64,000 nucleotides of DNA from IMG/VR virus record IMGVR_UViG_3300045988_072432. One strand, given 5' to 3'. The notes under the pieces are model-generated. The model saw only the letters and a list, made by a program, of their open reading frames with translations. It was not told where the DNA came from and searched no databases. Below, in pieces: positions 29,171 through 63,287 of the stretch (the first letter of the stretch is position 1; each line of letters begins with the position of its first letter). Source of the stretch: a virus. The translations under genes were made by a program, and so were the position numbers.

Positions 29171-29172
29171 AA

Positions 29173-40340: not shown

Positions 40341-40357
40341 AATTAAATTTTTCTTTA

Positions 40358-40368: not shown

Positions 40369-40417
40369 TAAAATTATTTTATATAAAATATCTTTTCAAT
40401 AAATACTGAGGTAAGTG

Positions 40418-41260: not shown

Positions 41261-41280
41261 ATAATTAAGTGTGGGTAAAT

Positions 41281-41319
41281 AAAAAGGCCTGAACAAAGTA
41301 ATATTGCCAGGCCTTTTTT
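41281..41319 (-). terminator. rho-independent (bidirectional) terminator
   Basis: 11-bp stem aaaaaggcctg / caggccttttt with flanking A and T runs. Lies after the stop of 41350..41940. Confidence 0.65.
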
Positions 41320-41349
41320 CATTATTAACGAATACTTATATAAAAGGGA

Positions 41350-41892
41350 TTAATCCTCTTCTTTTACGGCCTTTTTCTTCTTTTTATCTTTGGCCTTCTT
41401 TTCTTTCTTTTCCGAAGCTGGTTTTTCTTTTACCTTCTTCTCCTTTTTCTCTTTGGTTTCCTTCGGTTCCTTGGGAGTCTTTCCTGAAGCAAGCTTTCTT
41501 TGCTCCATACGATATTTCTTTTTTTCGGCAGAAGTCATTTCTCTACCATCAATAAGAGGGTAATCGTATTTAGTAGCAGTTTTACCGGCAGATTTCTTTT
41601 CCTTCTTCTCTTTGGTTTCAGATTCCTCTTTCTTGCCTTTTTCTTTACTGAGTTTTACCAATTTCTTGGTATTCTCCTTGTCACCTTCTGGGTAAGCAGC
41701 AGCTACCTTGTCCCGTTCTTTGTTGAGCTTATTTACAAGTTCGGTAACCTTTTTACCATGTTTCTTGTCCTTGGTCCAATCCTTAGTCGGGTCCAACTTG
41801 TTCTCTTTAAGGTAAGCATCTAAAGCTTTCTTTGCCTTGGTGAGTTCCGGAGTCTTAGATTCCGGTTTGCTCTTCTTGTCTTTCTTAGCCAT
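41350..41892 (-). CDS. highly lysine-rich (KEKKEKK) protein
   Basis: Track ORF trimmed to MAKKDKKSKPE. About 180 aa dominated by K/E repeats. Confidence 0.55.
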   Translation of the reverse strand: MAKKDKKSKPESKTPELTKAKKALDAYLKENKLDPTKDWTKDKKHGKKVTELVNKLNKERDKVAAAYPEGDKENTKKLVKLSKEKGKKEESETKEKKEKKSAGKTATKYDYPLIDGREMTSAEKKKYRMEQRKLASGKTPKEPKETKEKKEKKVKEKPASEKKEKKAKDKKKKKAVKEED

Positions 41893-41942
41893 TTTCTTTA
41901 TATTTGGTGAATAATGAATTTCCGATTTACATAATACCATAG

Positions 41943-42311
41943 TTATACTTCCCTAATTTGGGTTGGGATTTCTTTAATTTCTAGGATTTCTACACTTGCA
42001 TTTTCCATAATAGCCCTTATTTGTAATATGTCTACTACCTCTTGCTGAGTAAGATTAGTAAAAGTTTGTTCGTAAGTTTTATCCCCAACCTGATAAGTGA
42101 CAGTGATTATAATACCATTAAGTTTTCGATTTAGTTTATCCATTAGGCCTTTTAACTTCCTCTGAAGATAACTGATCCTTAACTTATGTTTTTGCCAATC
42201 TCCTTTCTTACCCTTTTCAAATGCTACTCTTTTTTGATAATGAGTAAACTGTATATCATTAACTGTCATCTTAAGACTTGATAAGAGAGTTCTTATACTT
42301 ATTTCTTCCAT
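41943..42311 (-). CDS. early hypothetical protein
   Basis: 122-aa ORF. Confidence 0.55.
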   Translation of the reverse strand: MEEISIRTLLSSLKMTVNDIQFTHYQKRVAFEKGKKGDWQKHKLRISYLQRKLKGLMDKLNRKLNGIIITVTYQVGDKTYEQTFTNLTQQEVVDILQIRAIMENASVEILEIKEIPTQIREV

Positions 42312-42520
42312 TTGGGTCTTTGTATTACTGGGTTAACTACTTCCTGGATTTCTTCTGATAGCATCTCCTTTGCCTCATGTATGATATTGATTGCAAGTTC
42401 CCTTTCATCTGATTCCAGGTTTAATTCTTTATCTTCTAGTGCATCAGTATAAGTATTTATTAAATTATCTAATGCAAGTATTCGAATATTCTTTCGAATT
42501 GCTAATTTCTCTTTATCCAT
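42299..42520 (-). CDS. early hypothetical protein
   Basis: 73-aa ORF. Confidence 0.45.
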   Translation of the reverse strand: MDKEKLAIRKNIRILALDNLINTYTDALEDKELNLESDERELAINIIHEAKEMLSEEIQEVVNPVIQRPKWKK

Positions 42521-42664
42521 GGGTAATAAAATTAAAGCCCACTACCCTCACAGGCAATGAGCTTTACGATGAACAACGTCCTAAGTGTGTAGTGTTGTTT
42601 ACCTTTTCTTTATTATGAGATTAAACTTGATTTAGCAGATAGATTTTTTAGGATGTGCCAAAAA

Positions 42665-43039
42665 TTAATCTTCTGTTTCGGACTCTTCGTTTTTGTCCTT
42701 CTTGTTTTTCGGAGAACAAATAACTCCATGGCCCTTCTTTGATTTTACAGTAAGATTGCCCGGAACGAAAGCAACCGAAGTAGATACCGGTTTACCCTCA
42801 GTAACCAAAACTGAAGTAACTACTACTCCCTGATAGCCCTCCTTGTTCTTTACGGCATAACCAAAGTTCATTACCTTGGATTTGTCGTTGATTGCAATGA
42901 TGTCAATTTGCTTACTGTTAGGACGTTGTTCAGCAGGTCTGTTTTTCAGAGCCTCTTGACGAGCTTTACGTTTTGCTTCCTTTTCAGCGTCTTTCTTTTC
43001 GTCACCTTTTTTCTTGGTGTCAGCTTTCTTTGTTGCCAT
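42665..43039 (-). CDS. protein with lysine-rich N-terminal tail
   Basis: 124 aa: MATKKADTKKKGDEKKDAEKEAKRKARQEALK..., then a beta-rich core. Confidence 0.6.
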   Translation of the reverse strand: MATKKADTKKKGDEKKDAEKEAKRKARQEALKNRPAEQRPNSKQIDIIAINDKSKVMNFGYAVKNKEGYQGVVVTSVLVTEGKPVSTSVAFVPGNLTVKSKKGHGVICSPKNKKDKNEESETED

Positions 43040-43082
43040 TTCTTTTAATTTTTAATGTTATGTTACTAAATAGTTTTTAAAA

Positions 43083-43114
43083 GGGAAGGTCATCCCTTGG
43101 GTCGTCTCCTTCCC
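43083..43114 (-). terminator. rho-independent terminator
   Basis: 7-bp stem gggaagg / ccttccc, then UUUU on the minus strand. Lies after the stop of 43142..43621. Confidence 0.5.
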
Positions 43115-43141
43115 AGTAATATTTCCTTCCCTCATAGTCTC

Positions 43142-43621
<480 letters not shown>

Positions 43622-43661
43622 TTTCGTAATGTTTAAGTTGGTTAATAAATTAATAAATATA

Positions 43662-43895
43662 TCACTCTGTTATAAGTTTCTGATAATTACCGTTTCCGGG
43701 ATTTTCGTTATCACTGTTAAATTGTTTAATCTCATCTAGAGTTGTTTTCAATTCTATTTGAGATTCTATAGTTACCACTTCGGATTTAATCTCCTTATGG
43801 TATTTATCATAAGTTACCTTTTTAAATATCTTACCTATGAAAGGATTAATAGGTCCATGGGTTACTAAACCCACCTTTGATAGTTTATCGTTCAT
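43662..43895 (-). CDS. early hypothetical protein
   Basis: 77-aa ORF. Confidence 0.45.
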   Translation of the reverse strand: MNDKLSKVGLVTHGPINPFIGKIFKKVTYDKYHKEIKSEVVTIESQIELKTTLDEIKQFNSDNENPGNGNYQKLITE

Positions 43896-44520
43896 TGCTA
43901 TATCTAATTTTGGTTATTCCAGGAATACCAACCTTTCCAAATACTTCGGTATAGGATAGATATTTTCCCTTTTTCATTGTTTTATAGTTATCTGATAATC
44001 GAATTGGGTATACCCATATCTTATTTTCTATCAACCTGTTGGTCATTATATAAGCATAAGAACTTCTAAGTTTAATGCTTTCTAATGATATAAACCCTTG
44101 AAATACAAGAGACTTCTTGATAAACCTTTCTTTTGGCAGATATCCGATAAATTTAAGTGATGCCTCATCAAATATGTCAATCATATCTCTTTGTGCTTTA
44201 ATAAATAGTACCTTCTGTATTGGGATATTCATTTTCTTTCTCAAATATAAAGCTAATGAGCTTACCAATGGAGGGTACTGCAAGAAAAGTATATTGAACC
44301 TATGTCTTTCCTCTGGAGAAAGCTTGTTGTAAATCCTGTAAGATAGCAAGACGGACCTGTAATCTCTTAGCGTGGAGATGCTCGGTAGATATGCCTTGCC
44401 GTTGTCCATAGAGTTTAATTGAGTATCTTTCATCGAATGCCTTTTTTCCTTTAGACTTAAAGACTCGGTGCATTTGAACCATAAATCTTCTTCGTCGGTG
44501 TTTATCAATATGATATTCAT
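43885..44520 (-). CDS. hypothetical protein, 3' partner of a possibly frameshifted gene
   Basis: 211-aa ORF. Overlaps 44300..44911 by 221 nt and lies in the +1 frame relative to it. Confidence 0.4.
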   Translation of the reverse strand: MNIILINTDEEDLWFKCTESLSLKEKRHSMKDTQLNSMDNGKAYLPSISTLRDYRSVLLSYRIYNKLSPEERHRFNILFLQYPPLVSSLALYLRKKMNIPIQKVLFIKAQRDMIDIFDEASLKFIGYLPKERFIKKSLVFQGFISLESIKLRSSYAYIMTNRLIENKIWVYPIRLSDNYKTMKKGKYLSYTEVFGKVGIPGITKIRYSNER

Positions 44521-44911
44521 CGGGTATTATGAATTTCTTCGCTTGTACAAATTTACCCTTGTACCAAAATTTAGTATATCCCCATTTATATCGGGTACCG
44601 TTCATATCGGATAATTCTTTAATACCATGCCTTATTAGTTTCCTTCCAGATATTATATGGATATATTGAAGAACATCAACTCCATAAAGATAAACTAAAG
44701 TAACTTTTACGTGATGTCTAGTGAAATATGGGATACCAGTTAAGTGTTTCCTATATAGACTTTTTTCAGTTATATACTTGTTGGTGGTATCTGGTCTCCA
44801 AGTCCAAATATAATACCTATCGGGTCGTATCGGTTCGTTATTTCCCTCCCTTAGTTTTACCATTGATATTCCTTTTTGCCATTCTATACCAAAGGTTAAT
44901 CGATTTCTCAT
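44300..44911 (-). CDS. hypothetical protein, 5' partner of a possibly frameshifted gene
   Basis: 203-aa ORF. The A6 run (plus T6 at 44442..44447) lies inside the overlap. Confidence 0.4.
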   Translation of the reverse strand: MRNRLTFGIEWQKGISMVKLREGNNEPIRPDRYYIWTWRPDTTNKYITEKSLYRKHLTGIPYFTRHHVKVTLVYLYGVDVLQYIHIISGRKLIRHGIKELSDMNGTRYKWGYTKFWYKGKFVQAKKFIIPDEYHIDKHRRRRFMVQMHRVFKSKGKKAFDERYSIKLYGQRQGISTEHLHAKRLQVRLAILQDLQQAFSRGKT

Positions 44912-45419
44912 TTGCCTCAGGGAATTTTTTCTTCATTCTCCGAATAATCCTATCAAGTTCAAAACCCTTTGCAGTCAATTCAAATACATAAGATTTTTTA
45001 GTACCCTTGATAAGATTGAATTCATCTCTTTCTCTTGGAGGTTTCTTTTCCCGAGGTTTCTTTATCCCTGGTACCCGTTTTGTTCTTCTTTGCCCATTTT
45101 CCCCCTCTTCTCCAAGAAACCCAAGCCTTAATCGAGAATTCCTTAGTGGATCATCCTTTGAATAACCAATATTCTCTAATTGCTTATCCATCCAATCATC
45201 ATATTTATCTATTAAGGATCTGTCTGGTTTTTCTTCTGAAACATTTATAAAATGAAGTAGATCAAATACTCCAGCAGAGCAAGCATCAGGAAAAGGCATA
45301 CCAAGTATGATAGCCTTTCTCTTTAGATCCTTGTAAGTCATGTTTCTCCCTGATGCACCAAGGAAATTCGATTTCTCTTTGGAGGGAGCTTTCAGGTCTT
45401 TTCTACTCTTTTTTGCCAT
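44838..45419 (-). CDS. basic hypothetical protein
   Basis: 193 aa: MAKKSRKDLK... The promoter in the 57-bp repeat lies 35 nt upstream. Confidence 0.6.
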   Translation of the reverse strand: MAKKSRKDLKAPSKEKSNFLGASGRNMTYKDLKRKAIILGMPFPDACSAGVFDLLHFINVSEEKPDRSLIDKYDDWMDKQLENIGYSKDDPLRNSRLRLGFLGEEGENGQRRTKRVPGIKKPREKKPPRERDEFNLIKGTKKSYVFELTAKGFELDRIIRRMKKKFPEANEKSINLWYRMAKRNINGKTKGGK

Positions 45420-45453
45420 ATATTTAATATTTTAAAGTATTCATTAATTCACT

Positions 45454-45510
45454 TGCAAATATAAATATAATATTTGAATTATATACTATATTTCTATTTC
45501 TTTTTATAAA
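45454..45510 (-). repeat. 57-bp exact direct repeat, copy 2 (contains -7 box)
   Basis: Identical to 32429..32485. Overlaps the 3' end of 45494..46474. Confidence 0.9.
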
Positions 45511-46474
45511 AATCCGAGGTTTTTGCCCGTTCTACGGCAGTAGATTTAGGTTTCTTCGGTTTTCTGTGTGTATGGATATTATATGCCATGTCTAATTTCT
45601 TTATATTGAATTCTATGTTGTTCACTTGATTATAGTTTACTGCTCTTTCCACACAGCATCTGTACTCTGGCCAGAATTTTTGCCCGAGCTTTACTGTACC
45701 AGTTTTAATCATAAACTTAGATACCATGAAACCAAAAGTATCAGCATCATCTTTAGTTTCAAATACATACATATAAAATCTACTAAACTCACTGACTACT
45801 TCTTCTAGTGGCCTCACAGGTAATAGTAGATAACCATCAGTATATAAGTCCTCAGATATTAGAGCTACCCAATATTTCTTTTTACCTGGTTTCACTTTAT
45901 ATCTAAACCTCTCTTTAAGTTTAGTGTGCATCCAGTCGGGTATTCTATTAAGGAGATATTTGATGTATATCTTATCCTTTTTATTCGACCTCCTTTTAAA
46001 TGCAGAAGGCTGTTGTAGCATCCTGGGTAGTATTCTAAAATTATTCCACCTATCAAATTCAAGAATTAATCTTAGAGTATCTATATCCCATTCATCGTCA
46101 GACTCTTTTAACCTCCTCATATTCCTCTCTATATTCTTAGAGTTTACTTTTGGGAGTAATTGAGTAGAGTCCCCAGTATATATACTGGCATCTTTTCTCT
46201 TTAATCTTTTCTCTAAACATCCCTCCATATAATCTTGGAAGTTTCTCTCACAGGGACAATCTGGTCGAAAGATAGAAGTGTGTTTCTCAAAAAAATCCGA
46301 GAATAGCCTAAAGAATTTTTCTGACCGTTCTCGGATTTCAAGATACTTGTAATGAGATAACTTTAAAATTTCACCAGCTTCCCATGAAGATTTACTTTCG
46401 GATAATTGAAGGAATAATGACTGTTGTTCTTTATCAATTAAACAACTCCAGGCTTTTTGTTGAGCTTCGTTCAT
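45494..46474 (-). CDS. HTH (sigma-70 region-4-like) transcription regulator (putative)
   Basis: N-terminal LFLQLSESKSSWEAGEILKLSHYKYLEIRERSEKFF resembles a region-4/LuxR HTH. Adjacent to the NusG-like gene. Confidence 0.3.
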   Translation of the reverse strand: MNEAQQKAWSCLIDKEQQSLFLQLSESKSSWEAGEILKLSHYKYLEIRERSEKFFRLFSDFFEKHTSIFRPDCPCERNFQDYMEGCLEKRLKRKDASIYTGDSTQLLPKVNSKNIERNMRRLKESDDEWDIDTLRLILEFDRWNNFRILPRMLQQPSAFKRRSNKKDKIYIKYLLNRIPDWMHTKLKERFRYKVKPGKKKYWVALISEDLYTDGYLLLPVRPLEEVVSEFSRFYMYVFETKDDADTFGFMVSKFMIKTGTVKLGQKFWPEYRCCVERAVNYNQVNNIEFNIKKLDMAYNIHTHRKPKKPKSTAVERAKTSDFYKKK

Positions 46475-46478
46475 AACA

Positions 46479-47195
46479 TTAAATTCTTCTATATCTCATT
46501 ATACTATCAATTGCTTCATTGGTTATCTGATTGGGGTCATATTCACCAGAATTAGCATAAAGCTTATCTGGGTCATGGTTTAAATATACACTATAGATAA
46601 CGTTGTCAAAGGGTAACCATACTTCCATCCTTCCCATTTCTGGGTATATAAGGACTTTTACTCTTTTACAAAGATGGTCAACCTCTAATACTGTAGCATC
46701 TACTCCCTCATAGGGATAACCTCGTAATACTAAGTAATCTCCCGGTTTTACATTGACTAAATCATCTACCGAAAACTTCTTGTTCTCTCTAGCAATACGT
46801 TTAAATCGCCTTACTTCTTTTCTACTACAAGTAGCCACTAAAGAAAAATCATCAAAGTCTTCTGCATTGTCAATCCTTACCTTTTTCTTTCTTGGGTGCA
46901 TTGTCTCGGTATTACGTAACCAAGTTCTGATACCAGATATATTCCTACGTAACTTATTAAGAAAGGGCCTTGAGAATGCTAATTTAGTGGGCATTCTCAT
47001 AAAACCATAATTGAATAATACTGGTACTTCTTCGAATACCATCTTACCCTTTGTGGTTTTTCTTAATACGTTTACCATAGGAATAATTGCCTTGATTTGG
47101 TCATACCCCTTTTCTTTAAGTTCTTTATTAATTTTATCACAGTACTTCCTTTCAAGGTAAAATATACAATATGAGTATGGGGTATGCTTCTTCAT
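46479..47195 (-). CDS. NusG/UpxY-like transcription antiterminator
   Basis: NGN-like N-terminus (YCIFYLERKY...EVPVLFNYGFMRM) and a KOW-like segment (KPGDYLVLRGYPYEGVDATVLEVD...RVKVLI). Confidence 0.55.
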   Translation of the reverse strand: MKKHTPYSYCIFYLERKYCDKINKELKEKGYDQIKAIIPMVNVLRKTTKGKMVFEEVPVLFNYGFMRMPTKLAFSRPFLNKLRRNISGIRTWLRNTETMHPRKKKVRIDNAEDFDDFSLVATCSRKEVRRFKRIARENKKFSVDDLVNVKPGDYLVLRGYPYEGVDATVLEVDHLCKRVKVLIYPEMGRMEVWLPFDNVIYSVYLNHDPDKLYANSGEYDPNQITNEAIDSIMRYRRI

Positions 47196-47198
47196 GGG

Positions 47199-47732
47199 TT
47201 ACCGATTTTTAAGAATTAACTTAGCTTGTTTATGTACTAACTTATAGTTTACATTCTTCAGTATATCACTAGCCATGAATACATAAAGAATCTCATCTAT
47301 CTTTGGTACATCGATTACCATAATATTGGCTTTATCGAATAGGGGTTTATATAATACGGAAGATAGACCCTTTCCAACTACAAAGAAAAATTCTTCTGAG
47401 GGCATTGAATTATATCTCATACAGAGTATGGGAACTTTATTTGCTCTTTTTGCATCCTTAGAAGCTTGTTCCCAAAATTTCAATATATCGCATCCCTTAT
47501 TACCTAAGAGTAGATGTTCAAATTTAATCTCTTTATAATTCTTGCATTCAATAGATATCTTACATCTATGAGCATGCCTTTCATCAGTACAGGTTAAATC
47601 AGAAGTGGAGTCCTTGTTTGAATGCCAAGCTCCACTCCCGGCTCTGTTTCTTTCAAATTTGTACCCGGTCCATTTCGTAAACCAAGCCCCTATCTTTCTT
47701 TCGAATCGATTTCCTTTATTCTTAGAGTTCAT
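47199..47732 (-). CDS. Hjc-like PD-(D/E)xK Holliday-junction resolvase (putative)
   Basis: KGNRFERKI...SGAW...SDL...ISIECK pattern. Confidence 0.5.
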   Translation of the reverse strand: MNSKNKGNRFERKIGAWFTKWTGYKFERNRAGSGAWHSNKDSTSDLTCTDERHAHRCKISIECKNYKEIKFEHLLLGNKGCDILKFWEQASKDAKRANKVPILCMRYNSMPSEEFFFVVGKGLSSVLYKPLFDKANIMVIDVPKIDEILYVFMASDILKNVNYKLVHKQAKLILKNR

Positions 47733-49476: not shown

Positions 49477-50444
49477 GACTCTACCTTTTTAAGTGTTTCT
49501 ATTAATAGGTTCGATTTAACCTTATCATTGATACCTTTCTCTTTTAAGTACCTCTTTGCTAGTGACTTCTTAGAAAGTTGCTTAGTAATCTTATGTTTGT
49601 TATTAACGGGAGTACTAGTTTTCTTGGGAATCACAGTATAATAATTGCCATCATCTTTAATATCTTCCTCAGATTCTACATCAATGAATTTCGGGAATTC
49701 CCTTAAAGGGATGAACTTCATTGATAGGTCCTCATATATTTTCCAATAACCCAATTCGCAATCTCTATCGGTTCTTCTTTGATGGTTAGTTGCCCCAATC
49801 ATATAGACCTTTTTCGAAAGTCTTTGAGGTTTATGAATATGTCCACATAATACTAAATCGAACTTATTGAGAAGGTTAACATTAAGATTCTCTACAGAAT
49901 CTATTTCCCTACCATCGGTGTCCTTTGCTCCTGGATAATCCGTGTGTAGTAAAAGTATATTCTTAAGACTTTTATCTAATTCAATATTCTTTAAATATTC
50001 ACTTAGACCGACATTATTATCAATATAAGGTACACCATATACTTTTATATCCTTATGATTAGAAGATAAGATAGCAGACCCATAATCTAATATATAAATC
50101 CCATACCTTTCTACTCTATAAAGCCAGCTATAGGGAGGTGTACCAGCTTTACTTACCTTCTTGATGTCATGATTCCCTGAAATAGCGTATACCCATAGAG
50201 GGTCATAATCATTGTACTTATTAAATTCTTTATAGCATATCTCATCAAGTTCTTGGTCCATATTCTCGGGCTTATGAAATAAGTCCCCACAGAATAAAGC
50301 TGGGCAATTATACTTCCTACATTGTTTTTGTATAATCGACAAAACCCTGAAACTATTCAGGGTCCTGTGATTATTCTCATTGAACTTAGCCCAGAGATTA
50401 ATATGCAAATCTGAAAAGGCTATTGCTATTACTTCTTTCCCCAT
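49470..50444 (-). CDS. sbcD: SbcD/Mre11-like nuclease
   Basis: Metallophosphoesterase motifs in order: FSDLH, GDLFH, GNHD, LLLHTD, GHIH. Confidence 0.85.
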   Translation of the reverse strand: MGKEVIAIAFSDLHINLWAKFNENNHRTLNSFRVLSIIQKQCRKYNCPALFCGDLFHKPENMDQELDEICYKEFNKYNDYDPLWVYAISGNHDIKKVSKAGTPPYSWLYRVERYGIYILDYGSAILSSNHKDIKVYGVPYIDNNVGLSEYLKNIELDKSLKNILLLHTDYPGAKDTDGREIDSVENLNVNLLNKFDLVLCGHIHKPQRLSKKVYMIGATNHQRRTDRDCELGYWKIYEDLSMKFIPLREFPKFIDVESEEDIKDDGNYYTVIPKKTSTPVNNKHKITKQLSKKSLAKRYLKEKGINDKVKSNLLIETLKKVESC

Positions 50445-51016
50445 ATCCTATCTAAATGGTAATTGATTTGTTCCGTTCTCATACCTAAATCGAGCTCAGA
50501 TATACAAATAGTGGGTATTTCCCAATTTGCAAGCAATTCCCCCATAAGAGATGATATCTGAACTTGGAAGAATCTGTTAAGTATTCTCTTACCATTATCT
50601 TCCATTGACCAATGCTTATAAGTATCTAGATTTAATGGTAAGAAGATTGCTACATCACATTGATCTTCCATTAAAGTCTTACATTGACAGAAAAAATGTT
50701 CCATTTCACATTCTGGTAAAGTTCTTGATTGCTTATACCAAAAATAAGCAGCCAAATCTGCATAACTCCTATCAGTTACAAAGTATTCTCTATCCTTGAA
50801 TAACCTATTCCTTTTGTTCAGAAGTTGAAAATCTGCTTTATACATTGCCTCCGAACCGAGGGATAATATTTCATTATGTGATACCCCTTCAGTAGCAGGT
50901 AATAAATCTGACATACTACCAGAAATAAAAGGTAGATCTTCTCTCTTAGCTACATACTTAGCTAAAGTAGTTTTCCCTATACCTGAGGGACCTACAAACA
51001 TTATACGTTTACTCAT
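50429..51016 (-). CDS. P-loop nucleotide kinase-like protein
   Basis: GPSGIGKTTLAKY resembles the guanylate/dNMP-kinase-type P-loop. 195 aa. Confidence 0.4.
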   Translation of the reverse strand: MSKRIMFVGPSGIGKTTLAKYVAKREDLPFISGSMSDLLPATEGVSHNEILSLGSEAMYKADFQLLNKRNRLFKDREYFVTDRSYADLAAYFWYKQSRTLPECEMEHFFCQCKTLMEDQCDVAIFLPLNLDTYKHWSMEDNGKRILNRFFQVQISSLMGELLANWEIPTICISELDLGMRTEQINYHLDRIWGKK

Positions 51017-55472: not shown

Positions 55473-55682
55473 TTATGTAGACATAGTATCCTCTCTTTTC
55501 GCTTCTGTAGTGGATTTAGCATTATCTTTATGATGAAGATACCTATTGCAACCTGGGCATTTAACCAATTTACAATCAGCAAAAGTATGTGAATCCACTT
55601 CTGAATAATCATACTCAAATTCACAATCACAGTATGGGCACTTAGCTCGCCATACAGTGGGTCCGTTCAAAATCTTTTTCAT
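55473..55682 (-). CDS. zinc-ribbon protein
   Basis: CPYCDC...CPGCN, 69 aa. Confidence 0.5.
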   Translation of the reverse strand: MKKILNGPTVWRAKCPYCDCEFEYDYSEVDSHTFADCKLVKCPGCNRYLHHKDNAKSTTEAKREDTMST

Positions 55683-56251
55683 TTCCTTAGTTTTATGTTA
55701 TTACATCGTAATATTTTATATAATACCCCAGTTGATATACCGAATTCTTCCAGTATATCTTTTCTAGGTATACCCTCTATATACATAGAAATTAATAATT
55801 CTACATTTACCTTACGTTCTCGTTCTTTACCCACAAAATAAAATCTTTTATCTTCTATACATTGACCAATGTTCATCTTAGCTGTGCCCCAATATAAATT
55901 ACTTACTCGATTATTCTCTGGATTATTATTTTTATGACATACTTGAGGATAATTGTTTGGGTTAGGGATGTAAATAGAAGCAACTAACCTATGTCTATAA
56001 AAGTTCTTCCGTTTACCCTCGTCTCCTACTAAAGAGTTAGATAAATAACCATTATCTTTCATAGCGGGTTTTACTAATTTCCAACTACCAGTAAATTTCG
56101 AGTATAATTTTCCAGTACGTGATATGTAATAATTACTAAACCCAGGTATATTACCCTTTTCTCGATTTTTCATATTCTCGTTGATATTTATGGATTTCCT
56201 TTTTATATAGTTCCATAAATACTTCTGGTGAAGCTGCACTAAAATTACCAA
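55679..56251 (-). mobile_element. free-standing HNH homing endonuclease (NUMOD4/HNH_3-like + C-terminal HTH)
   Basis: IPGFSNYYISRTGKLYSK, HRLVASIYIPNPNNYPQVCHKNNNPENNRVSNLYWGT. Likely start at M27 (56173). Paralog of 62239..62745. Confidence 0.75.
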
Positions 56252-59200
56252 TTTTACGATTCTTAAACTTATGATATTCCTCCATGTACTCTTCTACCGA
56301 AAAGTCTGGTTTTAACATTCTAGTATAATCATATCCTGGAATAAAAGGTAATTCTTCTGCCATTGACCGGCCTATTGTAAAATCCATTGATAGAGTTACA
56401 TCATCCACTTGAAAACCAAAATATTTCTTAGTACTAGGGTTTCTCAATATATCCCATATTTTAAAAACAGTCCAAGTATTAATATATTCAGGCTTTGAGT
56501 AAAAATAGGCTGCATCATGAACAGTTGCTACTTCAAGCATACGGGGTAATTTACCTTGTCTCATTAACCAATAAACAAGGATAGCTCCAAAATTAGTCAT
56601 ATTTGCTGCAGCACCCTGGCAATTACCCGTGATTAAAGTTCTATATCGTTTATCTTCACCAATTACCCTTGTAAAGAAAGCTCCAGATTTTACAGTAGGA
56701 CACCATACTTTACCTACATACTTCTCTTTCGTTAAATTATTCTCTGAATTGTAAGTATTCTTGGTGTTTACTGATTTCCTAAAATTAGAGAATTTTACTC
56801 CATAACTAGTTTTAGTGGCCCGTACAAACTCTTGACCATATTTACTTGGTTTCTTATCTTTAAAATAAGATATGTCACCTTCATGTGATAATTCATACAT
56901 ACTTGAGGTGTTGTTACAAAGTACTACCAAAGCCTGAAGTAATTCTCCTTGAGTTTTATCTCCGGTTGCCCATATCGACCAACCATCCCCTAATCTCATA
57001 TTCTCTAATAAGATACTTAATTGAGGGTTAGTTAATCGAGTTAATAACTTCATATTTAACTTACGTTCAGGAACTAACCTATTAAGTTTATAAACAAATC
57101 CTGGGTCTCTTATTTCCCATATCACTTGATTCTTTTCTCTACGGGAGAATTCTACATCTAATTCTTCCATAATAGAATCAATAATATCTACCTTGTGAGG
57201 ATTTGCAGTATTACTCTGACATATTCTTACTATGTTACCATTCTTCAGATGACCATCAGTAAGATACCAACCTAAAAAAGCTACATAAGCATCCGAATAT
57301 CTAGCTTTCACTTGATTATTATGAGGAGCTCTTATTGGGATAGCATAAGGTTTATCTGAATTGTATAATTCTTCAGAAGTTAATACTTCGGTATTATCTA
57401 ACTTAGATATCTTATTTGGTTTAGTAACTACCCATCTATGGTCTGGGGTTGATAATACGTCTAGATGTTTTGTCTTTAACCTAATCATATCTCCATCATA
57501 ATCAAATACATTTACCCTTTCAACCTTTTGCCATTCTGATTCTCCTATATCCCGATTAAAAGCTAATATCTCATCACCAACCTTTAAATCTTCATAGTTT
57601 ACCCATCCCTTAGTTTTACTAAGAGCCTGAGATGATGGTAATAAGCAAGGAAAATTAAGTCCCAAACGGATGGCATAAGCAACTTCTTGTTTATCATTTG
57701 AGTATATTTGTGGTAATCTTCTCTTAGTACCAAATAACTGAGTATAATACCCATGCTTACGAAGGAATTTCTCTTGCTTCTCTTTGAACTTAAGTATCTT
57801 TGGATGTTTCTCAAAGAACTCTGCCATTTCTTTATGGGCTTCTTCTTTAGTAACTATAATACCAGCTTTTGGGTCGGATAGTTTTACTGCAAGTAAAGCT
57901 TCCCCAATACCATAAATCAAACCGAATGCAATTTGCTTAGCTTGTTTTCTTCTAGTCTTCCATAGTTTATGGTCTGGATGATTTTCATCTTCATATATCC
58001 TAGATGCTTCTTCAATTGATACCCCATATTTTGCTGCTGCTATACCCAAGTGAGGGTCAGCCCCCTTTGCAAAAGCATCAAGATAAGTTTCATCACCTGA
58101 TAAGTGTGCCATCATTCTTAACTCTGCTTGAGAGTAGTCAAATGCCATATATAGATATCCAGGAGGGGCAATCAATTGTTTCTTGATATTTGGGTCTACT
58201 GATGTCTTAGGTATCTGCTGCATATTTGGGTCTGCAGAACTAAATCTATTAGAATCTGTACCGTGTATATTATACCTACCATGTAATCGGGAATCATCTT
58301 GTACTTTTTCCCACCATCCATAAATATAGGTCTTATACATTTTCTCTAACCCTCGTAATTCAAGAAGCTTATCAAGAAATATTGCCTTTGGTGAATCTTG
58401 CTTTTTAATTGTTAGCCTAAGATTAGTAAGAGTTTCTTCATCAGTACTTGGTTTACCAGATTCATTATCCTTAATTACATCGAAATGAAAACCATCTTCT
58501 GAATACATCAATGCAGGTAAATCAACGGGACTACCCAAATTAATAGGTCTTATTAGTTCTTGTTCTTTTTTAGTTGTGAATATACCTGCTTTGATATTTG
58601 AAATTTTCTGTTCCCTTGATGCAATCTTCCGTTTATCCTTTGGGTCATTATAATCTAACTCTTCAAGTTCTGATTCGATAGATTGAATATACTTATCAAT
58701 CTTTTCTTGGTTATACTTCTTTTCGAATTTCTTTACTCTTGGCAAAGCATATATTGCGTCTCTAGCAGCATCTATTTTTGGCTTATATTCTTCTAAAAGT
58801 TTTTTATTGAACTCAGTATCTAGATATAAACCTTCTTTCTCTACCGAAGTAAGTACTCGTGAATTACACATAAATAAATTACGGAATACCGAATACATAC
58901 CCAAGTCAACCAACTTCTTTTCAAAAAATATCATTAACCTAAGAGTATAATCCGTATCTTGACAACCGTAATGACAGAGTGAATCCAATTCCTTTTTATC
59001 CCATGGTATCTTATCAAAGGCATCTTGCTTTTCATAATTACCATACTCTGGTAAATATCTTCTTACCATTGACTTTAAGTCATGAGGTTTTTCCTCGTTG
59101 AGAACATATTTAGCAAGCATCCCATCTAAACATGTACCTCTGTAGAATATCTGATACTTCTGATTTATCTGATCATCAAATTTCCAGTTCCATGCAACCT

Positions 59201-59486
59201 TAGTTATCTCATAATTCTCGATTACCTCTTCCCCAAATTTCCTTAACATCTTCTTCCAGTTCCACCCAGGTGAAGTATATTCTTTTGTTTGGAAATGGTC
59301 TAAGGGAATAGAAGCACCAAATCCTGGCATCCAAGATACTGAAAGTATGGTTGGCTTAAAACTTTTGTTGTATATTGGTTCTGCATTTGTTTCATAGTCA
59401 CAGCAAGCATAACCAGTAGCTTTACAACAAGCAATAAGTTTTTTAAGCTCTTTCTTGTTTTTTATTATTGTATACCGTGTCTCCAT
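56151..59486 (-). CDS. polA: family A DNA polymerase with 3'-5' exonuclease domain, interrupted by an intein
   Basis: Exo I CCDYETN. Motif A FDYSQAELRMMAHLSGDE. Motif B RRKQAKQIAFGLIYG. Motif LNFP//CQGAAAN split by the intein. Motif C VHDA. Confidence 0.9.
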   Translation of the reverse strand: METRYTIIKNKKELKKLIACCKATGYACCDYETNAEPIYNKSFKPTILSVSWMPGFGASIPLDHFQTKEYTSPGWNWKKMLRKFGEEVIENYEITKVAWNWKFDDQINQKYQIFYRGTCLDGMLAKYVLNEEKPHDLKSMVRRYLPEYGNYEKQDAFDKIPWDKKELDSLCHYGCQDTDYTLRLMIFFEKKLVDLGMYSVFRNLFMCNSRVLTSVEKEGLYLDTEFNKKLLEEYKPKIDAARDAIYALPRVKKFEKKYNQEKIDKYIQSIESELEELDYNDPKDKRKIASREQKISNIKAGIFTTKKEQELIRPINLGSPVDLPALMYSEDGFHFDVIKDNESGKPSTDEETLTNLRLTIKKQDSPKAIFLDKLLELRGLEKMYKTYIYGWWEKVQDDSRLHGRYNIHGTDSNRFSSADPNMQQIPKTSVDPNIKKQLIAPPGYLYMAFDYSQAELRMMAHLSGDETYLDAFAKGADPHLGIAAAKYGVSIEEASRIYEDENHPDHKLWKTRRKQAKQIAFGLIYGIGEALLAVKLSDPKAGIIVTKEEAHKEMAEFFEKHPKILKFKEKQEKFLRKHGYYTQLFGTKRRLPQIYSNDKQEVAYAIRLGLNFPCLLPSSQALSKTKGWVNYEDLKVGDEILAFNRDIGESEWQKVERVNVFDYDGDMIRLKTKHLDVLSTPDHRWVVTKPNKISKLDNTEVLTSEELYNSDKPYAIPIRAPHNNQVKARYSDAYVAFLGWYLTDGHLKNGNIVRICQSNTANPHKVDIIDSIMEELDVEFSRREKNQVIWEIRDPGFVYKLNRLVPERKLNMKLLTRLTNPQLSILLENMRLGDGWSIWATGDKTQGELLQALVVLCNNTSSMYELSHEGDISYFKDKKPSKYGQEFVRATKTSYGVKFSNFRKSVNTKNTYNSENNLTKEKYVGKVWCPTVKSGAFFTRVIGEDKRYRTLITGNCQGAAANMTNFGAILVYWLMRQGKLPRMLEVATVHDAAYFYSKPEYINTWTVFKIWDILRNPSTKKYFGFQVDDVTLSMDFTIGRSMAEELPFIPGYDYTRMLKPDFSVEEYMEEYHKFKNRKIGNFSAASPEVFMELYKKEIHKYQREYEKSRKG
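56622..57647 (-). mobile_element. intein (342 aa) with LAGLIDADG-type endonuclease
   Basis: Residues 614-955 of the polymerase. It starts with Cys (CLLPSS), has block B STPDHRW and LAGLIDADG-like FLGWYLTDGHL and LLENMRLGDGWS, and ends ...LITGN followed by the +1 Cys. Removing it restores NFP-CQGAAAN (the NxPIQG motif). Confidence 0.75.
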
Positions 59487-59540
59487 ATTTTAAAATAGAA
59501 AAAGGGACATACCTACCAGTAGTAGATACATCCCTCATTA

Positions 59541-60275
59541 TTAATACTTCTCTTGTAAATCTTCCAGATTGGATGATAATGCTAACCAATCCTTCTTATA
59601 AGCATGAAGAGAATCAATAGTATGATACAGATAACCGGGTTTAACCCCAACCTCTTTAGCTACGTATTCCATAAGTTTCCATGCAAGGTATATATCATTA
59701 CCAAAGTGAGTAATAAAATCCGAACTTCTTTGGTGATAGCAAATATGTAATACCTTCTCCCCCTTACCATTCTGACGAATAAGAAAATCATAATACATAG
59801 AGCAAGGAATACGTTGTCTACCACCATAGTATAAGGTATCATCATGATCAAATATTGGTATAATTGCTTTTCTTGTATCTGGGTCTCTCTTTAAAAGACG
59901 AACTAAATCTTTTATTAATACTTCACCCATTCTCTCATTGTATGTGTAATCGAACATACCCTTATCATCAAGGAATTGTTCCCATAAATCTTTTCTTAAT
60001 TTCCAAGCTTCTCCTGGATTTATATCATTAGGGGATATTCTTTCTTGGAACTCTGCATCTGCCCATTCTCTTGAATGAGAGAATACGAATAACCATACCG
60101 GGTCTCCCAATGAAGTTAAGCAATATTGTTGGCAAATGAGTTCTTTAGTAATAAAATCCTCATTACCTTCAATGACTTTATTTTGATAGGTCTTTGGTTT
60201 TACAAGTTGACCATAACTATTGAGTTCTCTGCCCATTTCGGACATTAACTCAAAACTGTTAGAATATATCCTCAT
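59541..60275 (-). CDS. ThyA-family pyrimidine deoxynucleotide hydroxymethylase/methylase (dCMP-hydroxymethylase-like)
   Basis: LLKRDPDTRKAII, catalytic IPCS, HQRSSDFITHFGNDIYLAW, DSLHAY. Asp sits where thymidylate synthases have the dUMP-specifying Asn. 244 aa. Confidence 0.65.
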   Translation of the reverse strand: MRIYSNSFELMSEMGRELNSYGQLVKPKTYQNKVIEGNEDFITKELICQQYCLTSLGDPVWLFVFSHSREWADAEFQERISPNDINPGEAWKLRKDLWEQFLDDKGMFDYTYNERMGEVLIKDLVRLLKRDPDTRKAIIPIFDHDDTLYYGGRQRIPCSMYYDFLIRQNGKGEKVLHICYHQRSSDFITHFGNDIYLAWKLMEYVAKEVGVKPGYLYHTIDSLHAYKKDWLALSSNLEDLQEKY

Positions 60276-60288
60276 ATTATATAAATAT

Positions 60289-60483
60289 TTAACTGTATGA
60301 CATTGTAGAATTAACCCAGGTCATATGCCAGTAGCGAAATACAAAATTATCGAAATCCTCTACCTCTTTCATTAACAAGGGTATATCTGGTTCTGCACCG
60401 TTCTTTTTAATCTCTAAAACTTGGTAATAAAATTTGTTTACTAATCCTATCCGCTTCTGATTTAAAAATTCCCTAGCTTCCAT
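60289..60483 (-). CDS. small hypothetical protein
   Basis: 64-aa ORF between the two ThyA-fold candidates. Confidence 0.4.
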   Translation of the reverse strand: MEAREFLNQKRIGLVNKFYYQVLEIKKNGAEPDIPLLMKEVEDFDNFVFRYWHMTWVNSTMSYS

Positions 60484-61396
60484 TGTTGTTCTTTTGTTTT
60501 AAAAGTTTCTTCTTATAGGCTTTACGTTGAGAGTAAGAAATTACATTCTCGGGATATTCAATATCTTCGTATTCAAGAAGTAATTCTTTTGCTTTCATTG
60601 ATTTATATGTTTCTTCATATAAATCTGGTCTGAGCACTTTAAAACTTCTAAAGAATACCTTGAATGAAGAGAATTCCTTCTCTGTACCCTTTTGGAATTT
60701 CTTCCATATCTCTTTTATTCTCTTATTCCAAGCATTCTCTTCTGCCCCCTTAAGTACCTTCTTCAATGGCTTATGGGTATGATACATTAGAAGTGTCTCC
60801 ACATTTCCGTACATTTGAGTCGCGAATAGGTTGATTTGTACTGACTGATCCGGACCATATACGTACTCTGACATTCGTTGAATTAATAGGAAATCGAATA
60901 TTAACCTCTTGGTAATCTCCGAAGCCCGAACTACCATTGTAATAACTGGGATGTCCTCCCCGAATCGTTTTGAAAAAGTCGCTGCTATTAGACATTGCTT
61001 TCCGTTATCATGATGATTGTTAAACATATAGGTTATATTGTAATTCTGATTGTACTTATTTCTCAGTACTCTCAGTTTACTACGCAACAAGTCAAGCTTA
61101 TTAAAGTCTATGTAGTTATTCAATAAGCTAGTCCACTTAGTTTCTTTATAATTGAAACATCTCCCATAATCAAATTCTGGGTCTACCCAGGCATTGCGTA
61201 TCTTTATGAATACGTTATACACTACTGCTACCCCACTATTGGCAATAGCCCCCTTTGCAAATAAAGCAGGCTCTAATCTTAGGAATCCCTCATTGAGTTT
61301 TTCCCATGCTTCTTGTGAGGTAGCAAATTCTAACGAATGGAGGGACTCCTCCGGATTAAGTTGAAGTCCCTCTAATTTATGGTTCCATCCTGACAT
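60473..61396 (-). CDS. hypothetical protein, possibly a second divergent ThyA-fold enzyme
   Basis: Track ORF trimmed to MSGWNHK: the ATG at 61396 follows the upstream TAA by 1 nt. GKQCLIAATF ... VVRASEITKRLIFDF ... is weakly colinear with the PC / RSxD / ND blocks. Confidence 0.5.
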   Translation of the reverse strand: MSGWNHKLEGLQLNPEESLHSLEFATSQEAWEKLNEGFLRLEPALFAKGAIANSGVAVVYNVFIKIRNAWVDPEFDYGRCFNYKETKWTSLLNNYIDFNKLDLLRSKLRVLRNKYNQNYNITYMFNNHHDNGKQCLIAATFSKRFGEDIPVITMVVRASEITKRLIFDFLLIQRMSEYVYGPDQSVQINLFATQMYGNVETLLMYHTHKPLKKVLKGAEENAWNKRIKEIWKKFQKGTEKEFSSFKVFFRSFKVLRPDLYEETYKSMKAKELLLEYEDIEYPENVISYSQRKAYKKKLLKQKNNNGS

Positions 61397-61397
61397 G

Positions 61398-62285
61398 TTA
61401 ATAATTAGTTTGTTGCCTCCATCTATTGAGACGCTGTTTTTTAAAGAATAAACTGAATAACCCTTGGTCTGTGAACCCATTCAATGCAAGGAATCCCATA
61501 TATAGGTAGAAAGCTTTTACCAGTGATTCCTGGAAGTCTATCTCTTTAGTCATTACTTGGGTTTGTTTCCAAGGTCTAGACTTAAGGAAATTCCTTGCCT
61601 TGTTCAATTCATATATCACTTCCCATAAGTATAACTTCTCTGCCTCATGTGATAATTCATTCATCTTATGAAAACCAGGGATGTAAGAGATGATTTGTTC
61701 CCATTTACCACCTTCATCAAAAAAATCCTCTTCACAAATAATATCGAATTTCAATAAATTCTGGTAGTCGGAATATTTTACCACTAACTCTTTAACACCC
61801 ATAGCCATCACATCAAATAAGTTCTTTGCCTTATTATAGCTAAGAATATCTTCAGGAAGTATATTTGAATATACTAGAAGAGTAAAGAAAAAGCCTAAAG
61901 CATCTGCTTGTTCTTCATTTGCATTAGCAAGAGAATTCAATATCAATTGACATTCATTTTCATTGAACATCTCGATATTCCAACCATTCTTCTGACATAA
62001 TTCAAATACTTCTTCGGTAGATTCAAAACCCTCGGTAAGTTCTTCAATTACCCTACCTATAAAGTCCTTGAGTATTACCTGGTTCTTTGCATTATTGATA
62101 TCAAATGGGTAATCAGGTAACTGTTCTATTTGCCTATATCCATGCAATTGTTCTAACCCCAATTCATACATCTTTGATAGTACCCAATTAGTTTCTACTT
62201 TAGGTACTGGTTCACTTATATTTCTTATATCCAAAATGTTAACTTTTATAATGTTTACCATTAAGATAATTACCAACAGTAGCAT
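61398..62285 (-). CDS. all-alpha NTP pyrophosphatase (MazG / dimeric dUTPase / T4 gp56 dCTPase-like)
   Basis: IEELTEGFE and EEQADALGFFF (ExxE...ExxD). The C-terminal half has YELNKARNFLKSRPWK...LVKAFYLYMGFLALNG...FFKKQRLNRWRQQTNY, like the family's WK and K..N..RQ..Y ends. Start uncertain (62285, 62261 or 62171). Confidence 0.55.
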   Translation of the reverse strand: MLLLVIILMVNIIKVNILDIRNISEPVPKVETNWVLSKMYELGLEQLHGYRQIEQLPDYPFDINNAKNQVILKDFIGRVIEELTEGFESTEEVFELCQKNGWNIEMFNENECQLILNSLANANEEQADALGFFFTLLVYSNILPEDILSYNKAKNLFDVMAMGVKELVVKYSDYQNLLKFDIICEEDFFDEGGKWEQIISYIPGFHKMNELSHEAEKLYLWEVIYELNKARNFLKSRPWKQTQVMTKEIDFQESLVKAFYLYMGFLALNGFTDQGLFSLFFKKQRLNRWRQQTNY

Positions 62286-62745
62286 TACTAACCTTCAACC
62301 TTTTAGCTATGTACTTGTTAGTATTACCTTTTAATTTCAATCTCCCTAATCTTCGAATACTACGTACTGTTAATGAAGTATGAGGAGCAAATAGACCTCT
62401 TCTACTTACTCCATACATAGGATTATTTATACCTTTTAATTTCAACCCACCCTTATTAATGGCATCATATACATTATCTTTTTGAGTACCCCATTTAAGG
62501 TTCTCTAAACGATTATTCAAAGGGTTGTCATCTAAGTGCATTACTACTGGTAAATTATTCGGATTAGGTATATAGGCTTCTGCTACTAATCTATGTATTT
62601 TTACATTCTTAGATACCTTATTATTTCTAAGTTTAGTACGTTCGTATCCTTTATGGAAGAAAGTCTTTACGGGATGTCCCTTATTATAAAGCTTACCCTC
62701 CCGAGTAATATGATATCCTGGGAATCCTAATATATTATCTTCCAC
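62239..62745 (-). mobile_element. free-standing HNH homing endonuclease
   Basis: ILGFPGYHITREGKLYNK, HRLVAEAYIPNPNNLPVVMHLDDNPLNNRLENLKWGT, C-terminal HTH. Inserted between the dUTPase and NTP-PPase genes. Confidence 0.75.
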
Positions 62746-63287
62746 TATTTTATGTTTTGAGATGAACCAAATCCCTTATCTCCTCTACTTCCCCACATTT
62801 GAGACTCAGTATAGAATTCTTCTTGTTGAATCTCTTCTGGCTCTGTGATGTAGATGGGAACATGTATGAACTGTACAAGCTTCTTGCCACATTCGATAAC
62901 TTGAGCCTTATTAGAAGCATTATATACTCCGATATGTATCTCTCCTACATAGGGAGAATCTACTATCTCAGCTGTAAAGAGTAAACCTTGCTTAGTGGCT
63001 ATACCTGACTTATTAGCAGCCATTAACATAGAGGCAGGTGGTTCAAGCAATCCCATGATACCAGAGGGGATAAGTATACGATGTCCAGGTTTTAAAGCTA
63101 TATGCCTTACAAAGGCTTCACCAAAAGGAACATCTAAATCATAACCTTCGGAGTCGAATTCATTTTTAGAATGAATATGCTCTGGGTATAAATCAGTTGG
63201 TACATAAAAATCTAACCCAGCATCATTGGGGTTTGCTCTGTTTGGAGATATTACCTCCCTTACTTTGATAAATTTGAATCTGTTCAT
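62745..63287 (-). CDS. dut: trimeric dUTPase
   Basis: Motifs in order: AGLDF, ANKSG, IVDSPYVGEI, KLVQFI, SRGDKGFGSS. Confidence 0.85.
   Translation of the reverse strand: MNRFKFIKVREVISPNRANPNDAGLDFYVPTDLYPEHIHSKNEFDSEGYDLDVPFGEAFVRHIALKPGHRILIPSGIMGLLEPPASMLMAANKSGIATKQGLLFTAEIVDSPYVGEIHIGVYNASNKAQVIECGKKLVQFIHVPIYITEPEEIQQEEFYTESQMWGSRGDKGFGSSQNIK

Follow-up and report, generated by a model that had tools for sequence, protein, structure and literature searches.

Co-localisation of homologues of thymidylate synthase (TS; ThyA), pyrophosphatases of the PRA-PH type and family A DNA polymerase (PolA) is specific to contigs that carry modified cytosine (PMC8670742; bioRxiv 2024.12.05.627091). 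The exchange of Asn for Asp at position 177 of ThyA (N177D; residue numbers are those of Escherichia coli ThyA unless stated otherwise) sets the specificity for cytosine, and position 147 also separates the TS homologues of modified contigs from those of unmodified contigs (PMC8670742, PMC13326640). Asp or Glu at position 143 is the mark of hydroxymethylases. In the deoxycytidine monophosphate (dCMP) hydroxymethylase (dCH) of phage T4, Asp145 activates the substrate water, and the D145N variant formed no 5-hydroxymethyl-dCMP (5hm-dCMP) (PMC6400193). The flavin-dependent 5-hydroxy-dCMP synthases, among them those of RB69 and DLP3, are recognised by the exchange D169N (PMC13326640), and in TS itself the C-terminal tail closes the active site for hydride transfer (PMC6400193). 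Here, the locus at positions 59,541 to 63,287 of the virus record IMGVR_UViG_3300045988_072432 (IMG/VR) was compared with these systems. The whole stretch of DNA analysed, 64,000 nucleotides in length, is referred to as the window.

The locus contains four conserved genes in a fixed order 5' of the PolA gene, encoding a trimeric deoxyuridine triphosphatase (dUTPase), an all-alpha nucleoside triphosphate (NTP) pyrophosphohydrolase (PPase), a cryptic ThyA-fold protein and a ThyA homologue. The original prediction for this region, made from the sequence alone, was a T4-style hydroxymethylation module, and every open reading frame (ORF) that it listed was found again in the ORF list of the window, with the same coordinates and on the minus strand. 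We give slightly better than an even chance to the reading that the region is a pre-replicative cassette for C5 modification of dCMP that is distinct from the known types. The PPase, a cytosine-type ThyA homologue and the dUTPase lie together beside the replicase, which suggests that the virion DNA contains modified cytosine.

Results

Active-site residues of the ThyA homologue

The ThyA homologue (244 amino acids, aa; 59541..60275, minus strand) was assigned to the ThyA superfamily, as had been predicted, by its score of 54.1 bits against PF00303 (E 1.6e-14; cut-off 24.3 bits) and a match to PHROG 160 (E 2.9e-28). It was aligned with E. coli ThyA, T4 gp42 (reference sequence identical to PDB 1B49) and the Mosigvirus protein in the gp42 position. 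In its own numbering, C158, R183-S184, Y112, E75 and H224/Y226 align with catalytic residues of ThyA. The altered positions are Asp194 (N177), Ser159 (H147) and Arg155 (L143); D186 is found at the position of D169 and T110 at that of T4 Ser94. The chain stops about 20 residues past the H-x-Y motif and thus has no C-terminal tail of the TS type.

The full signature (E58 W80 Y94 R126 K127 R143 C146 S147 R166 S167 D169 D177 H207 Y209) was common to 156 related sequences, and five more deviated at position 127 only. Arg143, in the motif R-I-P-C, was invariant in about 165 relatives and was also present in phages CP3, Strzyga, STP12, Horseradish and FF47. Asp177 and Ser/Thr147 were likewise invariant in about 165 members of this type. 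Arg143, Asp169, Asp177 and the short C-terminus constitute a fourth type of signature within the ThyA homologues specific for cytosine, which the existing rules (L143D/E for hydroxymethyl, D169N for hydroxyl) leave unclassified.

The best PDB matches of the 244-aa protein were the dCMP hydroxylase of phage HY126 (9iqu/9iqc, E 9e-9; identified from the Foldseek descriptions and PMC13326640) and then MilA (E 8e-7). T4 dCH (1B5E and related entries) gave no significant phmmer match. Full-length tblastn matches, with 26-28% identity, were obtained to gp42-position proteins of T-even-like phages.

The residues of a canonical TS were not found, since Asn177, His147, a hydrophobic residue at position 143 and the C-terminal tail are missing, and the scores against the NCBIfam TS equivalogs were far under the cut-offs. 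The secondary features of T4-type dCH are present, namely Asp177 (Asp179 in T4), a retained D169 (Asp171 in T4), T110 in the motif Y-T-Y112 and a short C-terminus, but position 143, three residues ahead of the catalytic Cys, is occupied by Arg where Asp or Glu is required. The dCMP-hydroxymethylase-like active site that had been proposed for this ORF therefore holds at Asp177 and fails at the defining position 143. D169N, the mark of the 5-hydroxy-dCMP synthases, is absent, the window enzyme having R-S-S-D186 where the Mosigvirus protein has R-S-Q-N. With regard to the XP12 type, Asp177 is present, and there is neither a C-terminal segment nor a deaminase in the window cassette.

Judged by these residues, the 244-aa enzyme is of the cytosine type and, because D169 is kept, of the folate type rather than a flavin-dependent 5-hydroxylase; nor is it a thymidine monophosphate (dTMP) synthase. 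A function as 5-hydroxycytosine (5hoC) synthase was considered in view of the best PDB match and was rejected because D169 is retained. The predicted role of the enzyme is a folate-dependent one-carbon modification of dCMP at C5.

A second, divergent ThyA-fold protein

The 307-aa protein encoded at 60473..61396 (minus strand) belongs to PHROG 34294 ('unknown function') and gave no sequence match in Pfam, NCBIfam or PDB. Its gene is labelled 'hypothetical protein' in all GenBank records of cultured carriers. An exhaustive search yielded a family of 153 clusters at 50% identity. Among 78 diverse members, none matched any relevant Pfam family, and none reached PF00303 at E <= 0.01. Over the same 78 members, Y83, K87, Y95, C135, R157 and D168 were invariant; W88, E160 and R164 were nearly invariant in the family.

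Profile-profile comparison of this family with ThyA became informative once diverse members were used. With a shallow family alignment, hhalign gave a probability of only 1.6%. With the tool's alignments of diverse members the probability reached 53% (E 1.3e-4), and broader profiles built locally raised it to 84.3% (E 7.2e-6; 115 columns aligned). The register pairs C135 with C146, R157 with R166, S159 with S167, E160 with D169 and D168 with N177, so that the Cys, R166 and the position-177 residue correspond. A Foldseek search with the AlphaFold2 model placed 9iqc (prob 0.98), 9iqu, T4 dCH, MilA and TS on top, with weak E-values (0.017). This model is poor (predicted local distance difference test, pLDDT, 56), and the Foldseek result was used only jointly with the profile and motif evidence. 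Both this model and that of the 278-aa PPase were built on shallow alignments of 74-99% identity.

The 307-aa family differs from ThyA in that it has no conserved H207/Y209 pair and no R126-R127 pair, which in TS is contributed across the dimer interface, and its equivalent of D169 is Glu or Asp. In the cryptic ThyA-fold proteins of the actinophages Horseradish and FF47, Tyr is found at the Glu160 position.

From the profiles, the model and the motifs we conclude that the 307-aa protein is a highly divergent ThyA-fold protein. By alignment, a Cys nucleophile, an Arg for phosphate binding and an Asp of the cytosine type are retained. The weak ThyA colinearity that had been noted for this ORF was confirmed and strengthened, and the ORF had been underrated. 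Because Cys, Arg and Asp are invariant across members that are about 20% identical, the protein is a putative active enzyme and not a relic. A role as a stand-in for a deaminase was also considered and rejected, as the actinophage cassettes hold both. The family is a large, unannotated group of ThyA-fold proteins with catalytic-type residues, always encoded beside the Arg143/Asp177 enzyme.

dUTPase and all-alpha pyrophosphatase

The first gene of the cassette (62745..63287, minus strand) encodes a trimeric, all-beta dUTPase of 180 aa, in agreement with the original assignment. The protein matched PF00692 (E 6.6e-15, 55.5 bits; cut-off 22 bits), NCBIfam dut TIGR00576 (E 1.6e-18) and PDB dUTPases (down to E 8e-11). 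Motif V (RGDKGFGSS) is present and aligned with that of the PDB dUTPases.

The PPase, probably of the dUTPase_2/T4 gp56 family, is encoded at 61398..62234 (278 aa, minus strand). The longest ORF, 61398..62285, corresponds to 295 aa, but most homologues are 278 aa long, and the start is therefore likely the TTG at 62234, four bases past the stop codon of an HNH endonuclease gene. The C-terminal third of the PPase scored 20.0 bits against dUTPase_2 (PF08761; cut-off 22.9 bits), and the protein matched PHROG 12184 ('nucleotide pyrophosphohydrolase') with E 9e-19. Eight of nine scanned orthologues passed the PF08761 cut-off (24.9-45.4 bits, E 2.8e-5 to 1.4e-11); the ninth, from Strzyga, passed PRA-PH instead. 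The deoxycytidine triphosphatase (dCTPase) gp56 of the T-even-like Mosigvirus matched PF08761 at the same C-terminal positions (29.6 bits, E 1e-6).

A direct BLAST comparison of the PPase with Mosigvirus gp56 gave no significant match, and nothing was found in a PDB sequence search with the 295-aa protein. The AlphaFold2 model is all-helical (pLDDT 46, shallow alignment). A Foldseek search with the 278-aa model returned PfRH5 and spike proteins on top, which were discarded as meaningless. Membership in the dUTPase_2/gp56 family is nevertheless likely in view of the PHROG match and of the PF08761 positions shared by the orthologues and gp56, and the earlier description of 61398..62285 as an all-alpha, gp56-type NTP pyrophosphatase probably holds. 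The gene context suggests that the PPase is a putative dCTPase, supplying dCMP and removing deoxycytidine triphosphate (dCTP), since a separate trimeric dUTPase is present and the cytosine-type ThyA adjoins the PPase. As a second dUTPase, the PPase would be redundant beside the trimeric enzyme.

These results bear on a strictly T4-style explanation, in which the 244-aa protein would be a dCMP hydroxymethylase, the PPase a dCTPase and the 307-aa protein an accessory or degenerate paralogue, with 5-hydroxymethylcytosine (5hmC) in the virion DNA. Such a system would fit the gp56 family of the PPase, the Asp177, D169, E58, Y94 and W80 of the 244-aa protein, and its Thr at the T4 Ser94 position. 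Its length and short C-terminus also resemble those of T4 dCH (246 aa). The full-length tblastn matches to gp42-position proteins point in the same direction, but these proteins are of the RB69/HY126 type and are 5-hydroxy-dCMP synthases, not hydroxymethylases. T4 dCH itself gave no significant phmmer match, and an invariant Arg stands where Asp or Glu is needed, at the position at which D145N abolished 5hm-dCMP formation by T4 dCH (PMC6400193). The invariant residues of the divergent 307-aa family also argue against a relic. We consider the strictly T4-style explanation unlikely. The T4 logic of the original prediction was recovered in part, in that a PPase, a cytosine-type ThyA and a dUTPase lie beside the replicase, whereas neither a T4-type dCMP hydroxymethylase nor a kinase for its product was identified in the window.

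Conservation of the cassette in other phages

Gene order was compared across 80 loci of other gut-phage groups in IMG/VR, found with a medium-diversity alignment; in these loci the query of the cryptic family is only 34-40% identical to its match. The PPase, the cryptic ThyA-fold protein and the Arg143/Asp177 ThyA homologue were encoded in the same order and on the same strand in 79 of the 80 loci, and the remaining locus ends before the PPase position. Homologues of PolA were found in 76 and those of the dUTPase in 78 of the 80. In each of ten loci that were mapped more closely, an ORF of polymerase size lies 3' of the ThyA gene, and the dUTPase gene lies directly 5' of the PPase gene in three loci checked by Pfam. 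Many of the gut-phage loci have two paralogues of the cryptic family, of about 330 and 250 aa.

In some sister loci, a genuine ThyX (PF02511, E 2e-47) is inserted into the cassette, and in some a canonical ThyA (PF00303, E 1e-78; N177, H147). This provides an internal control, as the presence of a ThyX or canonical ThyA in the same cassette implies that dTMP is not the product of the variant enzyme. Together with N177D, H147S and the missing tail, it answers the question raised originally, whether 59541..60275 encodes an ordinary thymidylate synthase, clearly in the negative. The ThyX or ThyA gene is found between the cryptic paralogues in some loci (L084:5086-5724, L143:3668-4636; L084:4049-5083 and 5944-6690). 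Up to four ThyA-fold or TS genes are consecutive 5' of PolA in some gut-phage groups.

These observations also bear on an explanation by ordinary nucleotide metabolism without DNA modification, according to which the genes would encode a dUTPase, a house-cleaning MazG-like PPase and divergent TSs that boost the supply of thymidine triphosphate (dTTP). The position of the cluster within a replication and nucleotide-supply module is compatible with this, as are the GenBank labels 'thymidylate synthase' and 'dUTPase' on these genes. A variant TS would be redundant, however, in the relatives that have ThyX or ThyA beside it, and so would two different dUTPases. About 165 homologues have Asp177 and Ser/Thr147 without exception, whereas the canonical ThyA of the same cassettes has N177 and H147. 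We regard an explanation without DNA modification as very improbable.

The full cassette, consisting of the PPase, the cryptic ThyA-fold protein, the Arg143 ThyA and PolA, was also found in cultured phages, namely Clostridium perfringens phage CP3 and its relatives, Brevundimonas phage Strzyga, Gordonia phage Horseradish and Mycobacterium phage FF47. The cassettes of Horseradish (L167 1157-7495) and FF47 (L168 1407-6938) add a thymidylate-kinase-like gene at the 5' side and a dCMP deaminase gene beside PolA. In Pseudomonas phage STP12, the genes for the cryptic ThyA-fold protein and the Arg143 ThyA adjoin; a search with a narrow profile found no PPase in this phage.

The deaminase of the actinophages is relevant to the possibility that the 244-aa enzyme is an XP12-like dCMP methyltransferase making 5-methyl-dCMP (5mdCMP), in which case 5-methylcytosine (5mC) would replace C in the DNA. 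A dCMP deaminase gene beside PolA resembles the arrangement in 5mC phages, and the neighbourhood of a TS homologue with D177, a PPase of the PRA-PH type and PolA is typical of these phages (bioRxiv 2024.12.05.627091). Furthermore, 5mdCMP was formed by five of seven tested TS homologues linked to a deaminase (bioRxiv 2024.12.05.627091), and N177D alone is described as turning TS into a dCMP methylase, in work cited in PMC8670742. In the window, however, the cassette has no deaminase, and the enzyme has a charged instead of a hydrophobic residue at position 143 and lacks a tail that could close over the active site during hydride transfer. The TS homologue of Xanthomonas phage Bosa, which is taken as XP12-like and lies beside a dCMP deaminase gene, retains a long C-terminal segment. 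An XP12-like pathway would also leave the obligatory second ThyA-fold protein without a role. We consider it improbable that the cassette of the window is of this kind.

Gene order and other features of the window

The genes of the locus follow each other in transcription order at 62745..63287 (dUTPase), 62239..62745 (HNH endonuclease), 61398..62285 (PPase), 60473..61396 (cryptic ThyA-fold protein), 60289..60483 (64-aa ORF) and 59541..60275 (ThyA homologue), followed by a hairpin and the PolA gene. The hairpin (59502..59536, minus strand; 16-pair stem and T-run, found by a consensus scan only) sits directly past the ThyA stop codon and ahead of the PolA start. It may be a candidate transcription terminator or attenuator that separates the cassette from the polymerase.

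PolA (1111 aa; 56151..59486, minus strand) matched PF00476 (E 3e-59) and PF01612 (E 4.6e-14). It carries a 342-aa insertion at residues 614-955 (window positions 56622..57647, minus strand) with edges of the intein type (NFP/CLLPSS ... LITGN/CQG, with the slash at the edge). The PolA of the related locus L093 does not have this insertion. No Hint or LAGLIDADG match to the insertion was found in Pfam at E <= 0.001.

The HNH gene between the dUTPase and PPase genes (62239..62745, minus strand) was not listed in the original prediction. It encodes a homing endonuclease of 168 aa with a C-terminal helix-turn-helix (PF13392 HNH_3, E 6.6e-9; PHROG 59, E 1.8e-40). In related loci, the presence of HNH genes and their placement within the cassette vary. 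The gene is a mobile insertion and has no functional share in the pathway. A second HNH gene (55679..56251, minus strand) lies just 3' of PolA and is a paralogue, 43% identical over about 100 aa. The two paralogues flank the block of PolA and nucleotide-metabolism genes.

The 64-aa ORF at 60289..60483 (minus strand), which had also been listed, proved to be real and conserved within this phage group only. It was present with 84-100% identity in 65 of 80 close loci. Family searches gave no match, and it was not found in the 80 loci from other gut-phage groups or in the cultured phages.

The P-loop ORF at 50429..51016 had been proposed as the kinase of the module, which was not borne out. Its PDB matches were AAA+ ATPases and covered residues 2-60 only (Walker A). 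The Pfam families dNK and Cytidylate_kin were matched at E 0.03-0.09 and PHROG 2107 ('thymidylate kinase') at E 7e-9, a weak match, and BLAST against the kinases of the actinophage cassettes gave E 0.004 at best. An assignment as a deoxynucleoside monophosphate (dNMP) kinase was rejected; no dNMP kinase was among its PDB matches.

The window represents the genome of a tailed phage, with genes for TerL, portal, protease, major head protein, endolysin and a tail fibre of 2046 aa. The latter (5760..11900, minus strand) contains several repeated domains of the tail-fibre type and a peptidase-like segment. A recombination and replication block comprises RusA/PDDEXK, SbcCD, an exonuclease, UvsX, SSB and PolA. 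Among the ORFs scanned, those on the minus strand in a stretch of about 20 kb (~27000..47200) had no PHROG or Pfam match. No ORF of at least 100 aa is present at about 28.6-30.9 kb, where the GC content falls to 30%, and the GC skew is positive at about 26-34 kb, in contrast to the remaining window. Hundreds of metagenomic contigs, each about 85 kb long, encode near-identical proteins; a megablast search with the region found essentially no match among GenBank phages. Together with PolA, a structural module of the contractile-tail type, the long block of unmatched ORFs and an origin in the gut, this size would agree with what has been published on 'Flandersviridae'/Gubaphage (PMC8008677).

Discussion

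A model for the pathway

If the region is, as favoured here, a cassette of its own type for modifying dCMP at C5, the PPase would hydrolyse dCTP, and perhaps deoxyuridine triphosphate (dUTP), to the monophosphate. This would supply dCMP to the ThyA homologue and keep unmodified dCTP from the polymerase. Cys158 of the ThyA homologue would then attack C6 of dCMP, and a one-carbon unit would be transferred from methylene-tetrahydrofolate to C5. The exocyclic methylene intermediate would most likely be captured by a nucleophile and not reduced, because the active site is open, with no tail, and polar at position 143; the product would be 5-hydroxymethyl-dCMP or a related 5-CH2-X compound. For the cryptic ThyA-fold protein, which may likewise act on a cytosine nucleotide of this pathway, there are two conceivable roles, that of a partner subunit and that of an enzyme for a second chemical step. 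A kinase, none of which was assigned in the window, would raise the product to the triphosphate for incorporation by PolA. The dUTPase would supply deoxyuridine monophosphate (dUMP) and keep uracil out of the DNA.

The hydroxymethyl product is not secure. Plain 5hmC is less secure than was originally assumed, because of the Arg at position 143 and the result with D145N of T4 dCH. A more specific variant of the model is that the Arg143/Asp177 ThyA and the cryptic ThyA-fold protein form a two-enzyme route to a C5 modification of cytosine that is none of 5mC, 5hmC and 5hoC. A nucleophile other than water might capture the methylene intermediate, with the invariant Arg binding an anionic co-substrate, or the second enzyme might re-activate a 5-substituted dCMP for exchange. 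We put this two-enzyme route forward tentatively and hold it to be somewhat unlikely.

Several observations weigh against a modification cassette. The PPase of the window is just under the Pfam threshold, and its substrate preference is not readable from the sequence. Arg143 violates the Asp/Glu rule of the hydroxymethylases, and the AlphaFold models of the 307-aa and 278-aa proteins are both of low confidence (pLDDT 56 and 46). No dNMP kinase for a modified nucleotide was identified in the window. The further decoration enzymes that had been anticipated were not seen either; no glycosyltransferase or other group transferase was found in the 30-odd window ORFs scanned, and as the ORFs of the 20-kb stretch are without family matches, this absence is not established. 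No report on DNA composition was found in the literature for the C. perfringens, Brevundimonas and Gordonia carriers. The isolates in the Brevundimonas phage paper were typed by EcoRI patterns, which are uninformative on modification.

The window also encodes a homologue of DNA C5-cytosine methyltransferases (352 aa; 21186..22244, minus strand; PF00145, E 2.8e-13), which counts against the cassette as well. It has motif I (VCAGQG) and motif VI (ENL), and an unusual motif IV, PDCG instead of PCQ. With a C5 substituent already on every C, such an enzyme would be left without a substrate, which suggests that C is replaced in part only, or that the enzyme has another target or another role. The gene lies between the packaging and the lysis genes.

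If the cassette functions as proposed, modified cytosine is packaged in the DNA of Bacteroidota phages that form a very common group in the human gut. This would have consequences for the evasion of restriction and CRISPR, for the prediction of host ranges, and for library-preparation bias and base-calling in virome studies. If the two-enzyme chemistry were true, one of the most abundant phage groups of the human gut would have it, as would cultured phages from four bacterial phyla. Since phages of Clostridium perfringens, Brevundimonas, Gordonia and Mycobacterium that are easy to grow carry the cassette (and a Pseudomonas phage the ThyA pair), the chemistry is directly testable with existing assays.

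Comparison with known systems

The gp42/gp56 system of T4 resembles the cassette in having a ThyA fold of about 245 aa with Asp at N177, D169, E58 and Y94 and no tail. Its partner gp56 is likewise an all-alpha PPase and matches PF08761, as do most orthologues of the window PPase, and the genes are likewise placed beside replication genes. The T4 enzyme has the catalytic Asp145, whereas the window enzyme has Arg there and no significant direct sequence match to it. Unlike T4, the cassette has an obligatory second ThyA-fold protein and a separate trimeric dUTPase, and no kinase of the gp1 type and no glucosyltransferase were found in the window ORFs scanned.

The enzymes RB69 gp48, DLP3 gp80 and HY126 AfhB (9iqc, 9iqu) are the best solved-structure match of the 244-aa protein and, by fold, also of the 307-aa protein. 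These 5-hydroxy-dCMP synthases share Asp177, Ser/Thr147 and the short C-terminus with the window enzyme. They differ in having D169N and Glu143, whereas the 244-aa protein has D169 and Arg143; at the position of D169, the 307-aa family has Glu or Asp. A cluster of arabinosyl or glycosyl transferases, as in the RB69 type, was not found among the window ORFs scanned.

The XP12 type shares Asp177, the retained D169 and the neighbourhood of PPase and PolA with the cassette, and with the actinophage cassettes also a dCMP deaminase. The Bosa enzyme has a long C-terminal segment, Asn143 and Pro147, unlike the window enzyme, and no cryptic ThyA-fold partner is present in the stretch examined. MilA, the cytidine monophosphate (CMP) 5-hydroxymethylase of mildiomycin synthesis and the third-best PDB match, is likewise a cytosine-specific ThyA homologue with Asp177. 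Unlike the window enzyme, it has Asp143, uses a ribonucleotide substrate and belongs to a bacterial antibiotic pathway.

By analogy, the cassette would work like the T4, RB69 and XP12 systems, in which a ThyA homologue and a pyrophosphatase act ahead of replication. Its residues, however, are not those that define the T4, RB69 and XP12 classes, and it adds a second ThyA-fold family.

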